64,000 bases of DNA, taken from contig NZ_JBEKZF010000003.1 in the NCBI RefSeq assembly GCF_049510175.1, positions 149,195 through 213,194 on the forward strand, given 5' to 3'. This document shows positions 1 through 22,098 of this stretch, one piece after another. The position numbers were made by a program, and so were the translations under genes. Within the stretch, counting starts at the first letter, position 1, and each line of letters begins with the position of its first letter. Source of the DNA: Methanoregula sp. (GTDB taxonomy: Archaea > Halobacteriota > Methanomicrobia > Methanomicrobiales > Methanospirillaceae). The notes below the pieces were generated by a model, which was not told where the DNA came from, searched no databases, and saw nothing but the letters and a program-made list of their open reading frames with translations.

Positions 1-45
1 TACTCGTGGGAAGAGGTAATCCCTTATTTCTCCAGACCCCCTCTG

Positions 46-765
46 TTGTATGTGAGCACTCCCATGATCCTTCGCATCTTCACCCTTATCCTCAAACCGG
101 CAAATCCGCTGCAGTTCTCCCTGACGGAGTTCCGGTCGTCTCTTGCCCGCCAGCTTGCGGAGTATCCTGCACCAGCACTTCGCAGAAGTCCTCCCGAACG
201 GTTTATCTATCGTTATCCTGCGATCCAGTGCAAGCAGGTCAAAGGCGAGCTGATGCTGATCGGCATCTTCCAGGGAGCAGGCATCCTTTTGCAGATGGCG
301 GAAGGAGATCCGGAGATCACGATGGGAAACAACCGCTGCACCATCGCTTCGCGGGACAGGGAAATCCGCGATGAGGAATTCGGGATAACCGGCGGGATGC
401 ATGAATATGAATTTCTCACACCATGGCTTGCCCTGAACCAGCAGCATGCAAAAAAATTCTATGACCTGCACGGAAAACCTGCACGGGACGGATTCATGCA
501 GAAGATCCTGACCGCCCACCTGAATACGCTTGCAAAATCCCTCGATTATACTCCCGCTGAACCTCTCTCCTGCACGGCACATGTCCGGTTCAGACGGGAA
601 CAGATCGATTGCGAAAATGTGATGGTATTCCTGGGAAAATTCAGGACCAATCTCCGTATTCCGGATTATCTGGGGATCGGGCAGTCTGTCTCACAAGGAT
701 TTGGGACACTTCGGGAGATCCCCGGGAAAAAGAGATCCTGCGACGCATATCCGGTGCAGTCCTGA
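46..765 (+). CDS. cas6: Cas6-family (RAMP) endoribonuclease, apparently stand-alone; start may be ATG 64
   Basis: C-terminal Gly-rich loop YLGIGQSVSQGFGT, RYPAIQCK motif and ~230 aa length typical of Cas6b-like proteins. Confidence 0.7.
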   Translation: MYVSTPMILRIFTLILKPANPLQFSLTEFRSSLARQLAEYPAPALRRSPPERFIYRYPAIQCKQVKGELMLIGIFQGAGILLQMAEGDPEITMGNNRCTIASRDREIRDEEFGITGGMHEYEFLTPWLALNQQHAKKFYDLHGKPARDGFMQKILTAHLNTLAKSLDYTPAEPLSCTAHVRFRREQIDCENVMVFLGKFRTNLRIPDYLGIGQSVSQGFGTLREIPGKKRSCDAYPVQS

Positions 766-841
766 TGGTATTCGGTGTCGTCCTTATCCTGCCCCTCACA
801 TAATACCCATAAAGACCGTCAATGCCCGCATCATTTCACAA

Positions 842-2509
842 TCAGTCCAGGAACAATGGCACGTCCCGGAAGCTTTCACCATCAAAGACGCCCCTATCGG
901 TGACACGCAGCGACGGGATTACTGTCAGTGCGAGGAACGAGAGGTACATGAAAGGGTTTTCGATCCCCCCCATCTTTCTTGCGACATCATGCAGGACTTT
1001 CAACCGTCGGGCAACTTCCGGGTAGGGCAGGGTCGACATAAGGCCGGCACAATCGAGTGGCAGTATGACGGTTTCCATGCCGAGAACCGCTACCATGGCC
1101 CCCTGTGCACGGATTACCTGGTGAATGGCCTGGAGGATCGCGTCATCGCTCGTCCCGACAGCAATAATATTGTGGGCATCGTGTGAGATGCTGCACGCGA
1201 TGGAACCTTCCCGGAATGCAAAGCCATGGGCGAGCCCGATGCCGCAGGGAGCATCACGGTACCGGTTGCAGACTACTACCTTCAGGATATCCCGGTCCAG
1301 ATCAGGTATGTCCTCTGCAGAGCAGTCATAGCGGAGTGATGTGGTCACGATCTGGTCCGGGACAAGGCCGATTACCCGGGCGCTCCCGTTGCCGGAGATA
1401 CTGATGGCTTCCCGTGACGGGACAGAGCAGTGAACAGAGGGAGGGAACGGGACCTGCGGTACATGTGATGATGCTTTTATCTCAGTCCCGTTGCGGAAGA
1501 CCTGCCGGACAACGAACGTCTCCGGGTCGTCGACAATACAGAAGTCCGCCCTCCGCCCGGGAGCGAGTGCGCCCCTGTCACTAAGGCCGAACCGTTCAGC
1601 CGGGGAGAGTGTGGCCATGCGTATGGCAAGTTCCGGTGAAAGCCCATGAGCAACAGCCCTCCGGATACAGCGGTCGATGTGCCCCGCGTCCATCAGCAAA
1701 TCGGCATGGCAGTCGTCGGTGGCAAAGCAGCATCGGGACACCGTTGCGGGCGTGACAAGCGGGATGAGTTCCTCAATATTCTGTTCCGTGGAACCCTCGC
1801 GGATGAAAATATACATCCCTTTTTTCAGCTTCTCTTCCGCCTCAGCAAACGTGGTACATTCGTGATCGCTCTGGAGACCGGCGAGGATGTAGGCATTGAG
1901 GTCCTTGCCGGTAAGACCCGGGGCGTGCCCGTCGCGTATGCATGAGAGATGGAGTTTTGCTGCAATGCCGGGGTCCGCCGCAAGCACACCCGGCACATTC
2001 ATCATCTCGCCGAGCCCGAGGATCCCATCATCCCCGTTAAAACGGCGCAGGTCATCAGCCTCGAGCACGGCCCCTCCGACATCTGCCGGTGTCGCGGGCA
2101 CACAGGACGGGAGCAGGTACAGGATATCAATTGCGGCCCTCTCATGTGCAGTGAGCATGTATGCCATCCCGGTAGAGCCGGCAACGTTGGCGATCTCGTG
2201 GGGGTCGGCGATTACCGTTGTCGTCCCGTGAAGGGCAACGAGGCGGGCATATTCGGTGGGCGTGAGTAGCGAACTTTCGATGTGGACATGGGCATCAATC
2301 AGGCCCGGCACAATATACTGGCCGGTACAATCCTGCACCATTTTCCCGGAATAATCCCCGATACCGAGAACATGCCCGTTCTTAATCGCTAGCGACCCTT
2401 CATCCCATAAACAGGTGAACGGGTTGAAGACGGAAGCATTCTCAAAGACCACATCCGCCGGTTCCAGCCCCCTGGCTGCATCTATCATTGTTTTTGAGAA
2501 ATGGGCCAT
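842..2509 (-). CDS. ade: Adenine deaminase
   Basis: PGLIDAHVHIESS, DPHEIANV, GLGEMMN, DGHAP, DHEC, TDD and HDAHN motifs; 555 aa. Confidence 0.93.
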   Translation of the reverse strand: MAHFSKTMIDAARGLEPADVVFENASVFNPFTCLWDEGSLAIKNGHVLGIGDYSGKMVQDCTGQYIVPGLIDAHVHIESSLLTPTEYARLVALHGTTTVIADPHEIANVAGSTGMAYMLTAHERAAIDILYLLPSCVPATPADVGGAVLEADDLRRFNGDDGILGLGEMMNVPGVLAADPGIAAKLHLSCIRDGHAPGLTGKDLNAYILAGLQSDHECTTFAEAEEKLKKGMYIFIREGSTEQNIEELIPLVTPATVSRCCFATDDCHADLLMDAGHIDRCIRRAVAHGLSPELAIRMATLSPAERFGLSDRGALAPGRRADFCIVDDPETFVVRQVFRNGTEIKASSHVPQVPFPPSVHCSVPSREAISISGNGSARVIGLVPDQIVTTSLRYDCSAEDIPDLDRDILKVVVCNRYRDAPCGIGLAHGFAFREGSIACSISHDAHNIIAVGTSDDAILQAIHQVIRAQGAMVAVLGMETVILPLDCAGLMSTLPYPEVARRLKVLHDVARKMGGIENPFMYLSFLALTVIPSLRVTDRGVFDGESFRDVPLFLD

Positions 2510-14163: not shown

Positions 14164-15069
14164 ATGAAACTCAAAGATTTCCTTGTCAGCGAGGGAACAG
14201 AAAAGAACCTGGCGGAGTTAATTCTCTTCCTGAGCGACCAGGCCCATGGTGTCAGGAAGGGTTTTCTCTGCACCTGCATGAAAGATTCGGTGGATGAGAA
14301 AACCCGGAACGTATATGGCGAAGAGCAGATGCCCCTTGACAAGTATGCTGACGGGGTGTTCATTTCAGGACTCAAATCTTCTCGTCTCGTAAGGTATATC
14401 GCAACTGAAGAACAGGAGCAGGTCATCGAGGTTGAGAACCCGAAGAACGACTTCGGGGTCGTCATCGACCCGCTTGACGGGTCCTCGCTCATTGACGTAA
14501 ATCTCTGCACCGGATCCATCATCGGGATCTATCCGGGGCATGTGCTTGGCAAGGGTGCAACGATGGTTGCCGCCCTGTACATGCTCTACGGCCCGCTCAC
14601 CATCATGGCCTTCACGACGGGAAAGGGAGTCCACGAATTTGTCATGGACGAGTCCGGCGAATTCGTCCTGAGGCACCGGGACATCAGGATCCCGGAAGGA
14701 AGGATCTATGCCCCCGGCGCCCTCCGAAAGGATTATCTCCCCGCCCATGCCCGGTGGATCGGGGATCTCGAGCAGGCAGGATACAAACTCCGGTTCAGCG
14801 GCTGTTTTGTCGCCGATGTGCACCAGATTCTCCACAAGGGGGGCGTCTTCTCCTACCCCGGATTCAAGGGAAAAGAGAGGGGAAAACTGCGCCTTCTCTA
14901 CGAGGCAAATCCGATGGGAAAGATCATCCACGAGGCCGGCGGGGCGATCAGCAATGGGAACACTGATATTCTCGACATTACCCCCCGTGCCATCGATGAG
15001 ATCACACCTATCTATGTAGGCGGCAAAAAAGAGATCGCACTGATTGAAAAATTTATGCATGAAGGGTGA
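14164..15069 (+). CDS. fbp: Fructose-1,6-bisphosphatase class I
   Basis: [39 protein letters not shown]. Confidence 0.92.
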
Positions 15070-15089
15070 ATAAACAGGATTGATGCAGT

Positions 15090-16229
15090 ATGAAGAAGAA
15101 TGATTTTGGTCCTATCCCCGGCTCGACAATCCTCAACGCAGTCTCCGGCCACAAGGCGATTGTCATGGCGGCGAACGTCCGGATAGCATCGGTAGCACAA
15201 GGCATTTTCAGGGCAGCCAAAGATACAGACTCAGCAGTCTTCATGGAACTTGCCCGGTCGGAGTGCGACCTCAAGGGTGGATATACAGGACTCACCCCGC
15301 AGGATTTCTCAAAAAGGATGAACGAGGCCGCACAAGCCATCGGGTTTGACGCGTGGGCCCTCCACGCGGATCACATCACCATCAAGAAAGGTGATGCCGG
15401 GGAGGTTGACAGCACCAAACAGCTGATCGATGCACAGATTGCTGCCGGCTATACCTCATTTGCGATCGACGCCTCCCACCTCTTCAACTTCGAAGGAAAG
15501 AATGTCCAGGACGAGCTTGACCCGAATATCCGGATTACCTCTGACCTCGCCCATTATATCAAAAAAGGAATGAATGGAAGGGAGTATGGTCTCGAAGTTG
15601 AAGTGGGAGAGATCGGCAGAAAGGACGGAAGTGGGCTTGTCCTGACAAAACCCGAGGAGGCCGTTACGTTCATCCGGGCGCTCAATGAGAATGATGTGTT
15701 TCCCCACGTGCTCGCCATAGCAAACGGCAGCACGCACGGCCATGTGTACGATGCAAACGGGAATGTTGTCGAACAGCTCTCCATCGATATCCCCCAGACG
15801 AAGGCGATCGCAAAAGCCCTACGGGACAACAAGCTTAAGGTCGGGATCGCGCAGCACGGGATCACCGGCACTCCCCGGGACCTGATCAACCTCCATTTCC
15901 CGAAGGGGGATATCATCAAGGGTAATGTCGGCACCTTCTGGCAGGATGTAGTGTTCAGCACCCTGAAAGTGTACGAACCCTCGCTCTACAAGAGCATCCA
16001 GGACTGGACGCTGGAGAAATACCGGCCCGCAAACCCCGGGAAATCCGACCGCCAGATATTCGACGGGAACTGCAAGATGGCAATAAAGGAATTCTTCAAA
16101 GACCTCTATTCCCTTGAAGAAGGGACCGAGCACGCGATACAGTCGATGGCATATGCCGAAAGCCTCGTCTTCTTCCGGGCATTCGGTGCATACGGATCGG
16201 CATCGCTCGTGCGGAAATCCCTCAAATAA
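15090..16229 (+). CDS. fba: Class II fructose-bisphosphate aldolase
   Basis: LHADH, AIDAS, EVEVGEIG, IANGSTHG, AQHGITG and KGN motifs. Confidence 0.85.
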   Translation: MKKNDFGPIPGSTILNAVSGHKAIVMAANVRIASVAQGIFRAAKDTDSAVFMELARSECDLKGGYTGLTPQDFSKRMNEAAQAIGFDAWALHADHITIKKGDAGEVDSTKQLIDAQIAAGYTSFAIDASHLFNFEGKNVQDELDPNIRITSDLAHYIKKGMNGREYGLEVEVGEIGRKDGSGLVLTKPEEAVTFIRALNENDVFPHVLAIANGSTHGHVYDANGNVVEQLSIDIPQTKAIAKALRDNKLKVGIAQHGITGTPRDLINLHFPKGDIIKGNVGTFWQDVVFSTLKVYEPSLYKSIQDWTLEKYRPANPGKSDRQIFDGNCKMAIKEFFKDLYSLEEGTEHAIQSMAYAESLVFFRAFGAYGSASLVRKSLK

Positions 16230-16281
16230 TAACCCCCGCAATCTTTTAGTATCCGAAAGAGATCTCATACTGTGAAGTCTC

Positions 16282-17382
16282 ATGCCGAAAACCACGATTT
16301 CCGTGATTAAGGCGGATGTGGGAAGTTACCCTGGACACTCCCGCATCCACCCGAAACTTCTGGAGAAGGCACAGAAGCTTCTCAAGGAACAGGAAGGTAA
16401 ACTCCTGATCGACTCCTTCGTCACGCACTGCGGTGACGATCTCGAACTGATCATGACCCATACCCATGGCGTGGATAATACCAAGGTCCACAAACTTGCC
16501 TGGGATGTCTTCATGGAGTGCACGAAGATTGCAAAGGGCCTCAAGCTTTACGGTGCCGGTCAGGATATGCTCGCCGACGCCTTCTCTGGCAATGTCAAGG
16601 GGATGGGCCCTGGCGTTGCCGAGATGGAGTTCGAGGAGCGAGGGTCGGATCCTATTCTCGTCTTCATGGCGGACAAGACCGAGCCAGGAGCCTGGAACTT
16701 CTTCCTGTACAAGATCTTTGCCGACCCGTTCAATACCGCGGGCCTCGTCATCGACCCCTCGATGCATAAGGGGTTCGTCTTCGAAGTCCATGACCTCGTC
16801 GAGAAGCGCAAAATTCTGTTCAACTGCCCCGAGGAGATTTACAGCCTGCTGGTCTACATCGGTGCACCGTCGCGGTACGTGATCAAGCATGTCTTCAAGC
16901 GGGACGGGGAGATCGCTGCCTCGACCAGCACCCAGCGGCTGAGCCTCTTGGCAGGTAAATATGTCGGCAAGGACGACCCGGTGATGATCGTCAGGTCCCA
17001 GAGCGGTTTCCCAGCGGTCGGAGAAGTGATCGAACCGTTCTGTATACCGGTACTGGTTGCCGGCTGGATGCGCGGCTCCCATCACGGCCCGTTCATGCCG
17101 GTCGGCCTTTCCGAAGCGAACTGCACCCGGTTTGACGGACCCCCAAGGGTCATCTGCTTCGGGTTCCAGCTCTGCAACGGCGAACTGATCGGCCCTGCGG
17201 ATATGTTCGATGACCCGGCTTTCGATCGCGTCCGTAACCGGTGCAACGAGCTTGCCGACATAATCCGGGCCCAGGGCCCGTTCGAGCCCCACCGGCTCTC
17301 GCTTGGAGAGATGGAGTACACCACGCTTCCGGGTGTTGAGAAAGAACTGAAAAAGCGCTGGGAACCCCTGCCCCAGGAATAA
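16282..17382 (+). CDS. Bifunctional FBP aldolase/phosphatase (class V FBPase)
   Basis: KADVG..GH, GDD, LYGAGQDML, MGPGVAE, DKTEPGAWN, YVGKDDP (Schiff-base Lys), RGSHHGP. Confidence 0.95.
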   Translation: MPKTTISVIKADVGSYPGHSRIHPKLLEKAQKLLKEQEGKLLIDSFVTHCGDDLELIMTHTHGVDNTKVHKLAWDVFMECTKIAKGLKLYGAGQDMLADAFSGNVKGMGPGVAEMEFEERGSDPILVFMADKTEPGAWNFFLYKIFADPFNTAGLVIDPSMHKGFVFEVHDLVEKRKILFNCPEEIYSLLVYIGAPSRYVIKHVFKRDGEIAASTSTQRLSLLAGKYVGKDDPVMIVRSQSGFPAVGEVIEPFCIPVLVAGWMRGSHHGPFMPVGLSEANCTRFDGPPRVICFGFQLCNGELIGPADMFDDPAFDRVRNRCNELADIIRAQGPFEPHRLSLGEMEYTTLPGVEKELKKRWEPLPQE

Positions 17383-17507
17383 TTTTTCTCTTTTGTGATT
17401 GTACGGATGCGGGACTGATGGAGGCAGTCCCCCGGAAACAGTGGGAACGTGGCAATTCTGTGGTGTATGGGCAAACTTTAATTATCTTACATCCCAAATT
17501 AGGGCAG

Positions 17508-17744
17508 ATGGTTAACGGAATTGTTTTGCCAATAAAAAAAGTGTTTGCGCTGGTGGATTCGAAAATTTCAGTCGAGATCAAAGACGAAGGCCGGAAACTG
17601 CAGGGGCGCCTCGTTGCGGTGGATGAATATCTGAACATCCACATGGAAGAGACCCTTGAATTCGTCGACAACCAGCGGGGAAGAAGCCTCGGGACCGTCG
17701 TGATCCGGGGGAATAACATCCTCACCATCGCACCGGTAATCTGA
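17508..17744 (+). CDS. LSm/Sm-like RNA-binding protein
   Basis: Sm1 (GRLVAVDEYLNIHM) and Sm2 (VVIRGNNI) motifs. Confidence 0.92.
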   Translation: MVNGIVLPIKKVFALVDSKISVEIKDEGRKLQGRLVAVDEYLNIHMEETLEFVDNQRGRSLGTVVIRGNNILTIAPVI

Positions 17745-17755
17745 TCTGATAAAAG

Positions 17756-18109
17756 GTGGATACTGTGGGAGATCCTGCTGATGAAGGACTGAAACTGATT
17801 CAGTCGAAACCGGAGGGCGTGCTCCAGAGCGAGCTCTGGAAGGAGCTCGGCGTTGACAGCCGGAAGTGCTCCAGAATTGTCAAAAAACTGGAGGAGAGCG
17901 GGCTCATCGTTCGGGAGGAGTTCAAAAAAGACGGGATCAAGACCTATCTTCTGCGGGCAAAACAGATGCCGGTCAACCCGTCCGACCTGATGGCTGGCGA
18001 TGAGTTGATACCCTGTATCGGGTGCGATCTCGAATGTATTGTCGAGGAATGTCACCCGCTGATGGACTGGATGTACCAACTCGCGATCGTCTCCCATACG
18101 GAAGACTAA
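17756..18109 (+). CDS. Winged-HTH plus Cys4 protein, TFE-beta/RPC34-like
   Basis: GVLQSELWKELG wHTH and C-terminal PCIGCDLECIVEECHPLMDW. Confidence 0.65.
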   Translation: MDTVGDPADEGLKLIQSKPEGVLQSELWKELGVDSRKCSRIVKKLEESGLIVREEFKKDGIKTYLLRAKQMPVNPSDLMAGDELIPCIGCDLECIVEECHPLMDWMYQLAIVSHTED

Positions 18110-18337: not shown

Positions 18338-20017
18338 ATGATCTCTGTTTTGTTTATTGATGACAATACCGATCTTCTTGCCCAGATCCGCACGTTTCTT
18401 GAGAAGACCGGGGAGATCAGGGTTGAGCAGGCCCATTCCATAAAACAGGCAATAGAAAAACTCCGCGGCAGGACCTTTGACGTTATTGTCTCCTACGAGC
18501 AGATGCCCGATGTGAACGGGATCGAATTCGTGCCGGATATGAACGGGATAGATTTCCTGAAATACCTCAAGACCCAGGGAAATGCGACGCCGGTTATCCT
18601 CCTCTGCCGGAGAAGTTCGAACAGGCTCGCCCTTGAGGAAGTGAACAACGGGACGGAGATCACTCTTCCTAAATCCGGGGATATCCGCCCGCAGTTTATG
18701 GAAATGGTCAACCTGATCAAGCAGACGACGCTCAGGAAAAAAGCTGAGCGCGAGCTTAAGGTCCAGAACGAGCAGCTGGCAACGATCCTTTCCGCAACTC
18801 CTCTCGGAATATTCCAGATGCGCAACGGCATACTCGAATGGGTGAACCGACCCTTTGTTTCCATGCTTGGGTATACGGAAACGGCACTGGTTGGCAGGGA
18901 GTTACGCACGCTGCTGAAGACTCGTGAGGAGTTCGAACAGATCTGCCGTGAATTCCTGATCCGGAAGGATACCCAGGGCCTCGGGCATGCAGACTGCCGG
19001 CTCATCAAAAAAGACGGCTCATCCGTTCCCTGCCACCTCCAGGTGCAGCCGCTTGATCCCGGTGATATCACAAAGGGCGGGACTTTTGTCGTCACCGACA
19101 ACTCGGAAAAGCAGAAGATCACTGATGCACTACGGGAGAGCGAGGCAAAATACCGCGACATGATGCAGAACACCCAGAGCATTATCATCCGGATGGATAC
19201 GCAGGGGAATATCACATTCTTCAACAATTATGCCCTGACTTTTTTTGATTACACGTCGGAAGAGGTGATCGGAAAAAATGTCGTGGGAACGATCGTTCCC
19301 GAGAAAGCCCGCGTCCAGCACGGGCTCTCGATGATGGCAAACGACATCGGGTTCAATGCCGAAGGCTATGCGGTCAATGTCAGCGAGAATGTCCGGCGTA
19401 ACGGCGATCGCGTCTGGATCGCATGGATCAACAAGGCGATCCGGGATGAACAGGGCAGGATCATCGAAATCCTTTGTATCGGCAACGATATCACGGACCG
19501 CAAACGCGGGGGGGAAGTACGGATCAGCACCGATACCTGGAAAGATATGGTTGTCGCGGACACGGATGTGAAAGAGGAAGTGTTCGACGCGGTCTTCCAC
19601 ATCTGTACCGAGATCTCGATTGAAGGCCGGGAAGGAAAACCGGTCGGCACCACGTTCCTGATCGGGGATACGAGGAACGTGCTGGAAAAATCCCGCCAGA
19701 TTATCCTGAACCCGTTTGAGGGCCACCGGCCGGAGCTGCGCATTGTCACAAACCCTGATCTCAAGGAGAATATCAAGGCCCTCGCACAGCTCGATGGTGC
19801 ATTCGTCATCTCAGGTGACGGGTTTGTTGAATCTGTGGGCCGTTATATCACGGTGGACACGAGCAACGTCTCCCTTCCCCCCGGGATGGGAACCCGCCAC
19901 AACTCGGTTGCCGCCATCACGCAGGTTACCCATGCTGTCGGTATTGTCGTGTCGCAGAGCGGCGGGGGGATTACGGTCTTCAGGGAGGGCCGGATCCTGA
20001 AAAAGATCACTCTCTGA
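18338..20017 (+). CDS. Receiver-like/PAS/PAS/DisA_N diadenylate cyclase
   Basis: REC-like N-terminus, two PAS/PAC domains, and a DAC domain with EGREGKPVGT, LDGAFVI and GTRH. Confidence 0.85.
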   Translation: MISVLFIDDNTDLLAQIRTFLEKTGEIRVEQAHSIKQAIEKLRGRTFDVIVSYEQMPDVNGIEFVPDMNGIDFLKYLKTQGNATPVILLCRRSSNRLALEEVNNGTEITLPKSGDIRPQFMEMVNLIKQTTLRKKAERELKVQNEQLATILSATPLGIFQMRNGILEWVNRPFVSMLGYTETALVGRELRTLLKTREEFEQICREFLIRKDTQGLGHADCRLIKKDGSSVPCHLQVQPLDPGDITKGGTFVVTDNSEKQKITDALRESEAKYRDMMQNTQSIIIRMDTQGNITFFNNYALTFFDYTSEEVIGKNVVGTIVPEKARVQHGLSMMANDIGFNAEGYAVNVSENVRRNGDRVWIAWINKAIRDEQGRIIEILCIGNDITDRKRGGEVRISTDTWKDMVVADTDVKEEVFDAVFHICTEISIEGREGKPVGTTFLIGDTRNVLEKSRQIILNPFEGHRPELRIVTNPDLKENIKALAQLDGAFVISGDGFVESVGRYITVDTSNVSLPPGMGTRHNSVAAITQVTHAVGIVVSQSGGGITVFREGRILKKITL

Positions 20018-20031
20018 ACCGGGCATTTTTT

Positions 20032-22098
20032 TTACTCATGCCGGCATTCCGGCAAGCCGGAACTGCACTTGTGCCGGCAGATATTGCCTACTGCCCTGAA
20101 GGCATCCTCGAGGTCCGGGAAGTTGGGGATCTGTGAATCGTGCAGGATGCGCAGCGGCGTTTTCATGCTGTCGCCGCCTATCATACAGCCGACGATCATT
20201 TTGTGCGTATTTTTGGAAAAACGGACGATCTCGTTTGCCACCCGGATCGGATCGGAGATGGCTGTGGGTACCGCGATCACAAACGCGATGTCCCAGATGT
20301 CCTGATGACGGATCATGATATCGAACGTGCGGGCGAACTGGTCTGCACTGGAGTCGCCAACCATATCAATGGGGTTCTCGCGGCTCCAGTTTACCGGCAG
20401 CACGGCATTTAGTTCGCCGGTAAGTTCGGACGAGAATTCGATCATTTCGATTCCGAACCTCTCGGCATAATCGGACGACAGGACAGCAAACCCCCCGGCA
20501 TTGGTGATGACGACGGCACGGGTTCCCCTCGGGTATCCCTCGGAAGAGAGCAGCTCGGCTGCCTGGAAGGCTTCCCGGATGGAACTGACCGGGATAACCC
20601 CGGCCTGGTGGAAGGCTGCCATGTATACTTCAAAACTCCCGGCCAGGGAGCCCGTATGGGACGAAGCGGCTTTCTGTCCGATCCGCGAGGATCCGGATTT
20701 TATGGCAACAACCGGTTTTGTCGGGGATACCTTCCGGACAGTCTCCATGAAACGCGGGCCGGACCGGATCTGTTCGATATAGAGGATGATCGCCCGAGTG
20801 GCAGGATCGCTCCCGGCAAACCGGATGAAGTCCTCAAAGGTGAGATCGGACTGGTTACCGACACTGATAACCGCAGAAAAACCGATCTCCTCCGGCAGGC
20901 TCCAGTCGATGATGGTCGTAATGATCGCGCCGCTCTGGGAAATGAAGGCGATCCTTCCGGGTTTCGGGGAGACCGGATCAAACGTCGTGTTGATCCCTTG
21001 ATACGGGAGCATGAGCCCAAGGCAGTTGGGGCCCATGATCCGCATGCTATGGCGCTGTGCAGTCGATAGGATCTCGTCTTCAAGCTGCCGCCCAACATTT
21101 CCGCTTTCACGGAATCCTGATGAAATGATGATGGAAAGAGGCACCCCTTTCAGTCCTGCCTCGTTGATAACTTTGGGAACGCCGGGTGCCGGGATCGCAA
21201 TCACCGCGAGATCGACCTTTTCCGGTATGGATGCAAGGTCCGGGTATGCAGTGTGCCCGAGGATCGTGGGGCTCTTCGGGTTGACCGGGTAGAGAGTACC
21301 GGGGAACACGAGCAGGTTCCGGCAGATCGCGTACCCGACCTTGTTCGGGTCCTGCGATGCCCCTACGACAGCTATGGAATGAATATCGAGAAGGCTGACG
21401 GGCATTTCCCGGGCTGCGATAGTGTCAACGGTCGGAGGTGTATCATCCCGGTAAAACCGTGCATCTACCGCGCACCCTCCCGTTTCGTACAGGATCAGGG
21501 GGTTGATATCGAATTCGCTGATACGGGGATCGGACAGGAACATCCCGGCAACAGAACCGATGATCTTCACAAGGGACGCTTCGTCCAGCGCCGGTTCGTC
21601 ACGATAACCGGCGATCAGCGGGTAGCTCCTCAGCTCCCTGACCATGGTTCGGATCTCACTCTCATCGATGGGAAGAACGCGGATGGAGATATCCCTCAGC
21701 AGCTCGACCATCTTCCCGCCGAACCCGATGGTGATGACCTTGCCGAATGCCGGATCGGTTTTCCCCCCGACGATCAGTTCAAGCCCTTGTGCCATCTGCT
21801 GCTCTACCATGATACCGGTGATCTTCGCGCCGGAACTGTGGGCCTGAACATTCCGGGCAATATGATCGAATGCCAACCGTGCTTCCGCGGTAGAACGTAT
21901 GCCCGTGACGACACCTCCGGCATCACTCTTGTGGACGATATCCGGTGAGATCACCTTCATGACAACCGGATATCCTATGGAATCGGCAGCACGGGCAGCA
22001 TCGTCCTGCGTAGTGGCAACATGATAGTGCGGTACTGGAATATCGGCGCCTGCCAGTAGTAAATATCCTTCTGCTTCGGAAAGTAACGTCCTTGTCAT
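20032..22098 (-). CDS. ADP-forming acetate/acyl-CoA ligase, beta-alpha fusion (ATP-grasp domain first)
   Basis: VMKVISPDIVHKSDAGGV and EFDINP, then GASQDPNKVG, GPNCLG, SQSGA and SHTGSLAG (phospho-His). Confidence 0.9.
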   Translation of the reverse strand: MTRTLLSEAEGYLLLAGADIPVPHYHVATTQDDAARAADSIGYPVVMKVISPDIVHKSDAGGVVTGIRSTAEARLAFDHIARNVQAHSSGAKITGIMVEQQMAQGLELIVGGKTDPAFGKVITIGFGGKMVELLRDISIRVLPIDESEIRTMVRELRSYPLIAGYRDEPALDEASLVKIIGSVAGMFLSDPRISEFDINPLILYETGGCAVDARFYRDDTPPTVDTIAAREMPVSLLDIHSIAVVGASQDPNKVGYAICRNLLVFPGTLYPVNPKSPTILGHTAYPDLASIPEKVDLAVIAIPAPGVPKVINEAGLKGVPLSIIISSGFRESGNVGRQLEDEILSTAQRHSMRIMGPNCLGLMLPYQGINTTFDPVSPKPGRIAFISQSGAIITTIIDWSLPEEIGFSAVISVGNQSDLTFEDFIRFAGSDPATRAIILYIEQIRSGPRFMETVRKVSPTKPVVAIKSGSSRIGQKAASSHTGSLAGSFEVYMAAFHQAGVIPVSSIREAFQAAELLSSEGYPRGTRAVVITNAGGFAVLSSDYAERFGIEMIEFSSELTGELNAVLPVNWSRENPIDMVGDSSADQFARTFDIMIRHQDIWDIAFVIAVPTAISDPIRVANEIVRFSKNTHKMIVGCMIGGDSMKTPLRILHDSQIPNFPDLEDAFRAVGNICRHKCSSGLPECRHE

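Follow-up and report, generated by a model that had tools for sequence, protein, structure and literature searches.

Gene and domain organization

The window analysed, a 64,000-nucleotide stretch of a Methanoregula contig, carries at positions 18338..20017 of its forward (+) strand a real and intact gene for a predicted diadenylate cyclase (DAC) fused to sensory domains. The reading frame, delimited from the ORF list and Pfam, starts with ATG and encodes 559 amino acids followed by a stop codon; its N-terminus, MISVLF, is kept in all orthologues. The parts of the gene given below lie on the same strand. Residues 1-116 (18338..18685) form an aspartate-less receiver with a REC fold, identified by Pfam (PF00072, Response_reg, residues 4-115, 58.9 bits against a cut-off of 30.2) and by alignments with KdpE and CpxR. 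A long linker helix, modelled by AF2 with low to moderate confidence, spans residues 117-152 (18686..18793) and leads from the receiver into PAS1 (residues about 153-258; 18794..19111; Pfam PAS_8/PAS_9, AF2 pLDDT 85-90). This is followed by PAS2 (residues about 270-392; 19145..19513; Pfam PAS/PAS_9, 271-390). The stretches matched by the Pfam PAS models lie at about 145-196 and 271-390, and the models above cut-off, PAS_9 (82.4 bits) and PAS (75.2 bits), each match two stretches; TIGR00229 (PAS) matches with 118 bits. The DAC catalytic domain takes up residues about 400-559 (19535..20014), as placed by PF02457, NF041371 and alignment with CdaA structures, and the PF02457 (DAC / DisA_N) match itself covers residues 427-552 with 64.2 bits against a cut-off of 27. 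With the receiver, two PAS stretches and the DAC domain all above their Pfam cut-offs, the REC-PAS-PAS-DAC architecture of the original prediction is confirmed.

Occurrence and relation to known diadenylate cyclases

The assembly to which the window belongs (2.34 Mb, 97% complete) has one PF02457 match, namely ORF 18338-20017, and the profile search with PF02457 found no separate DacZ in this Methanoregula genome. Exactly one DAC match is present in 13 of 17 genomes of the genus, in each case within a reading frame of about 560-630 aa, and at least one in all 80 high-quality genomes of the family. A search with the full-length protein covered 151 genomes of the order. It recovered orthologues over residues 1-559 from each of the 13 genomes sampled in the genus (67-82% identity), from further genera within the family (39-69%) and from two more families of the order (39-44%). 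Full-length homologues are thus present in three families; the original prediction had proposed to survey the distribution of the architecture. Some genomes of the order have a second paralogue at 31-33% identity, and families of the order without a full-length homologue encode DacZ-sized proteins of 270-300 aa. Scanning named genomes brought up 142 relatives; the 80 of these that were listed come almost all from Methanoregula, Methanoregulaceae or Methanomicrobiales MAGs, and one carries the label Candidatus Rokubacteria. Protein databases hold more than 100 clusters at 73-97% identity, M. formicica among them.

One sister-genus genome (G002, C1:248500-250500) has a second REC-PAS-PAS-DAC copy that is split into overlapping ORFs (35..967 and 684..1535), apparently a pseudogene with a frameshift or else the result of an error in sequencing. 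The same genome has an intact 552-aa copy at another place.

The genome G005, also of Methanoregula, has a single DAC gene, whose product is 69% identical to the protein described here over residues 1-559 and likewise has the duplication and RHN described below, with CYED at the acceptor site. We take G005 to be M. boonei 6A8. In the account given by Braun 2019 (PMC6741144), five archaeal DAC classes, DacV to DacZ, are attributed to Corrigan & Gründling 2013, and the representative of DacX is Methanoregula boonei A7I8S2. On the assumed identity of G005, the gene in the window is therefore a presumptive orthologue of the DacX class from another Methanoregula species, with no difference in architecture. 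Following the same account, in which the sensor-fused classes DacV to DacX were already named in 2013 (PMC6741144), the novelty first claimed for a sensor-fused archaeal DAC was overstated. DACs have also been sorted by domain architecture, into 22 families as outlined in Galperin 2023. The architecture is already catalogued, and the gene adds a member to a known, experimentally uncharacterised class; our literature search found no experimental work on DacX.

The protein shares with DacZ/CdaZ its catalytic clade and the D-G-A, G-x-R-H and S-x-S motifs, and the second Arg of RHR is absent in both. The two differ at the N-terminus, where DacZ/CdaZ have a PK_C-like regulatory domain and the Methanoregula protein has an aspartate-less REC and two PAS domains. 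The DacZ equivalogue model NF041371 gives 106.9 bits against a cut-off of 430, with model positions 116-263 aligned to residues 405-555 only, and the full-length match with a PK_C-like N-terminal domain that marks membership of the equivalogue is absent. The contrast originally drawn with "constitutive" DacZ and CdaA types is too simple, given that both are known to carry or bind regulatory modules.

The nearest DAC domains (55-65% identity) are fused to AAA+ ATPase, TrkH, TPR or PKD domains, or to PAS-PAS alone. For the closest DAC domains outside the family the fusion partners are TrkH (P0128), AAA+ (P0125, P0151), TPR (P0135, P0142) and PKD (P0130, P0145, P0146, P0149). Recombination has evidently joined the DAC module freely to sensors in these archaea. 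The TrkH-DAC fusion (P0128) deserves mention in its own right: TrkH is a K+ transporter, and c-di-AMP controls potassium uptake in bacteria.

The catalytic domain

The DGA motif (D486 G487 A488; 19793..19801) is invariant in orthologues and aligns with the DGA of CdaA. R520 H521 N522 (19895..19903) is the counterpart of CdaA RHR in alignments with 6hvl and 4rv7, and S539-Q540-S541 (19952..19960) is that of CdaA S-E-E, as read from column counts across the clade. Compared with Listeria CdaA structures, DGA thus pairs with DGA, T-R-H-N with T-R-H-R and S-Q-S with S-E-E; Asn522 falls opposite Arg205, the second Arg of RHR, and Ser541 opposite Glu224. With CdaA and DisA the protein shares the DAC fold family, the DGA and, in the phosphate-binding motif, Thr-Arg-His. 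Apart from the RHN/SQS and RHR/SEE difference, the match, of about 70 residues, is weak (E about 1e-6), and the Methanoregula protein has neither transmembrane helices nor an HhH domain.

A search of the DAC region against 1.84 billion representative proteins gave 1,268 matches, and 146 of the best 150 were aligned. Across these 146 representatives of the DacZ-like clade, D and G of the DGA motif are each present in 145, and R and H of RHx are essentially invariant. The third position of RHx varies freely (A 36, S 28, V 14, R 12, T 9, others). In the S-x-S columns the first S is found in 146/146, the middle position is E in 64 and Q in 62, and the last S is kept in 134. D-G-A, G-T-R-H and S-x-S of the Methanoregula protein agree with the consensus of these representatives and with haloarchaeal DacZ equivalogues above the NCBIfam cut-off. 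Six haloarchaeal proteins that score above the DacZ equivalogue cut-off all have GARHM[AS] and SES. The retention of DGA and the presence of RHN, as first noted, both hold at D486-A488 and R520-N522; the reading of RHN as a deviation does not, because clade members differ at the third position and DacZ equivalogues have RHM. A complete RHR is thus no defining feature of this clade, and RHN says nothing against activity. The change from Glu224 to Ser541 is likewise typical of the clade.

Mean pairwise identity among 50 orthologues is 0.85 in the DAC domain, 0.82 in PAS2 and 0.84 in the repeat described below, and purifying selection is accordingly strong; in PAS1 the value is 0.61. A domain that is catalytically dead, or repurposed for instance as an ATP- or c-di-AMP-binding output, would account for the change of RHR to RHN and of the Glu-Glu pair of CdaA to Gln-Ser, that is, for Asn522 in place of Arg205 and S-Q-S in place of S-E-E. 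We consider this improbable. Such substitutions are the rule across the DacZ-like clade, the DacZ equivalogues with RHM and SES belong to a family with a proven cyclase, and the gene is the sole DAC of its genome and bears the marks of strong purifying selection. M. jannaschii CdaZ is experimentally active. Mn-dependent cyclase activity has been demonstrated for DacZ of H. volcanii (Braun 2019, PMC6741144). The cyclase domain of the Methanoregula protein looks competent by these comparisons.

A receiver without the phospho-acceptor aspartate

The receiver segment FDVIVSYEQMPDVNGIEF pairs with DLIILDLGLPDGDGIEF of KdpE, which places Tyr53 (18494..18496) opposite the phospho-acceptor Asp. The placement is anchored on both sides, by the DVIVS strand and by MP (FDVIVSYEQMP against KdpE), and in the AF2 model strand beta-3 terminates at residue 53, with moderate confidence there. 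Among 50 aligned orthologues the acceptor position is Y in 48 and C in 2, and the next residue is E in 46; an xxYE or xxYD context was found in 63/63 loci in which the repeat junction could be located. The absence of the phospho-acceptor Asp that was first noted is thereby upheld in 50/50 orthologues. The T/S switch position is Cys90 (C 20, G 16, S 12 among the 50 orthologues) and the Lys switch position is Lys112 (K 34, Q 8, R 3, S 3), and the acidic pair D8/D9 is retained. Distant full-length relatives, at 31-54% identity, also showed no Asp at the acceptor position, and in several of them the receiver is no longer recognised by Pfam.

The best reading of these data is that the domain is a pseudo-receiver that is not phosphorylated. 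Were it instead a working receiver, phosphorylated on Asp58, Asp67 or Glu54 as in a true two-component response regulator, the retention of D8/D9 and the near invariance of Asp67 would be expected, and two of four HMMER alignments to solved receivers do set the acceptor Asp opposite Asp58. Asp58 is variable (D, E, T, A), however, so we treat that pairing as an artefact of the repeat, and the conservation of Asp67 follows from the ordinary MPxxDG motif. The flanking DVIVS and QMP pin Tyr53 to the acceptor position, where beta-3 ends; the T/S and Lys positions have decayed in orthologues; Asp is likewise missing from the acceptor site in distant orthologues that have no duplication; and no histidine kinase was found adjacent to the gene. 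A phosphorylated receiver is thus very unlikely.

KaiA, FrzS and HP1043 are known examples of aspartate-less receivers. The pseudo-receiver described here resembles them in that its REC fold is recognised by Pfam, its acceptor Asp is replaced and its T/S and Lys positions are decayed. It differs in being fused to PAS-PAS-DAC and in having a conserved nine-residue duplication in the beta3-alpha3 loop.

The 27-bp tandem duplication

Tandem Repeats Finder (TRF) reports a repeat at 18504-18556 with a period of 27, 2.0 copies and 84% matches, and in-frame reading gives MPDVNGIEF followed by VPDMNGIDF at 18503..18556, in agreement with the 27-bp duplication of the original prediction. The duplication extends the beta3-alpha3 loop, and the second copy runs into helix alpha-3. 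In the AF2 model the loop comprises residues 54-69 (low confidence at 61-64) and the helix residues 70-79, the first copy being a low-confidence loop. Every Methanoregula orthologue examined has both copies, as do orthologues in the family's other genera whose protein identity is as low as about 46-54% (SYYQVPSSNLIEFLPDLNGVEL and SYYHLPEVNGIEFLPEMNGVEL are examples). In two other families of the order the orthologues (38-42% identity) have a single copy and likewise lack the Asp; the Asp was therefore lost first, and the duplication arose later within the family.

The copies were compared across 63 loci. Between genomes, each copy resembles its orthologous counterpart more closely (0.75 and 0.78) than paralogous copies resemble each other within a genome (0.69) or across genomes (0.68), which speaks against a recent origin and against gene conversion alike; no signal of gene conversion or concerted evolution between the copies was found at the 63 loci. 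Mean pairwise identity among 50 orthologues is higher in the repeat (0.84) than in the whole receiver (0.73). The comparisons show that the duplication is old, fixed in the family (apparently Methanoregulaceae), under purifying selection and not homogenised, rather than the fresh or private event that it might be taken for. That the repeat is a recent slippage product or an assembly artefact without functional meaning, as the high identity of the two DNA copies here (22/27 bases, 81%, the top of the range among the 63 loci) might suggest, is hardly credible and already refuted by comparative data, namely the two copies in orthologues of about 46-54% protein identity, the closer likeness of orthologous copies and the better conservation of the repeat than of the rest of the receiver. 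An enlarged, selected loop beside a dead active site is more likely to serve as a protein-contact or dimerisation surface.

PAS domains and structure model

PAS1 is the fastest-evolving domain of the protein; conservation of PAS2 comes close to that of the catalytic domain. It is tempting to speculate on these rates that PAS1 might act as a variable sensor and PAS2 as a transmission or dimer module. PAS1 has a weak PDB match to 3mqo. The nearest solved relatives of PAS2 are the RpfR PAS domain (best, E = 2.5e-6) and the FixL and DosP PAS domains, all of them weak. Comparison of PAS1 and PAS2 with solved PAS domains in the PDB found no cofactor signature. His328 (19319-19321) in PAS2 aligns with the haem-ligand region of FixL (PEPYRHEHD against PEKARVQHG); haem binding through this residue is doubtful, the position being N or I in some orthologues. 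Transfer of the ligand of the RpfR PAS domain to PAS2 was rejected on the weakness of the match.

The AF2 model of the full protein was built from a 50-sequence alignment (73-97% identity). Its mean pLDDT is 61 and its pTM 0.34, with PAS2 and parts of the DAC domain below 50, and it is too poor for fold comparison and supports neither a ligand pocket nor a dimer.

Proposed function

We conclude that the gene probably encodes an active c-di-AMP synthase that is controlled through its PAS domains and pseudo-receiver and not by phosphorylation. The predicted reaction is the condensation of two ATP into c-di-AMP. As the only DAC-domain protein in the genome, the gene product probably supplies the whole c-di-AMP pool of the cell. 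The protein combines a DacZ-like catalytic domain with an N-terminus in which the PK_C-like domain of DacZ is replaced by an aspartate-less receiver and then two PAS domains.

Two catalytic domains must face each other for DAC catalysis, as is established for DisA and CdaA. In the mechanism that we infer, the long helix (residues 117-152) and the PAS domains would keep the Methanoregula protein in a parallel dimer. Sensing of a ligand or of redox state by PAS, or docking of a partner on the pseudo-receiver, may then alter how the two DAC domains face each other and so set the rate of the cyclase, and the duplicated beta3-alpha3 loop may form the surface for protein contact or dimerisation. Input through PAS or protein contact in place of phosphorylation, as originally proposed, fits the missing Asp and the decayed T/S and Lys positions. 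The arrangement recalls PAS- and REC-regulated GGDEF diguanylate cyclases, in which N-terminal sensor or receiver modules also govern a C-terminal cyclase that pairs two catalytic domains; the catalytic fold and the product are unrelated, and the comparison is an analogy only.

To our knowledge, archaeal c-di-AMP signalling has been studied almost only through Haloferax DacZ. A sole cellular cyclase fused to PAS sensors and a degenerate receiver would offer a direct route to the input signal. The protein would also illustrate cleanly the case of a receiver in which loss of phosphorylation was followed by elaboration of the active-site loop. Its value is as a candidate for biochemistry; the system is not new in kind and is common across the archaeal order. 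A further, tentative suggestion, which we hold to be possible but rather doubtful, is that in Methanoregula and other Methanoregulaceae without DacZ the whole c-di-AMP pool is set by a PAS sensor (of energy or redox state, for instance) while the duplicated loop docks a partner protein. If true, this would be the first essential-type second messenger in an archaeon under direct sensory, rather than metabolic or housekeeping, control.

Genome context

The homologue search for c-di-AMP receptors of the DarA/PstA type (CdAMP_rec) found none in the genome, and no gene could be assigned as a phosphodiesterase. There are four matches to TrkA_C/RCK_C, a domain type that binds c-di-AMP in bacteria.

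Two genes lie directly upstream of the cyclase, at 17418-18109; one encodes an LSm (Sm-like) protein, the other a wHTH protein of 117 aa whose tail is rich in Cys (CIGCDLECIVEEC). The order LSm-wHTH-DAC is kept at 66 of 67 Methanoregula loci and is gone in orthologues of at most 54% identity. A functional link between the cyclase and these two genes was rejected on this account, the arrangement being synteny at the level of the genus only. Further upstream, at 14164-17382, three gluconeogenic genes, for a class I-type FBPase, a class II aldolase-like protein and a bifunctional FBP aldolase/phosphatase, stand in a row; the last, of the archaeal type, matches PF01950 with 608 bits.

Downstream of the cyclase is a convergent gene for an ADP-forming acetyl-CoA synthetase. 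In the gap between the two, eight consecutive T (20026-20033) are followed by CATGCCGG in three copies (20037-20060; TRF score 34), and 20026-20060 is plausibly an archaeal terminator region shared by both genes.
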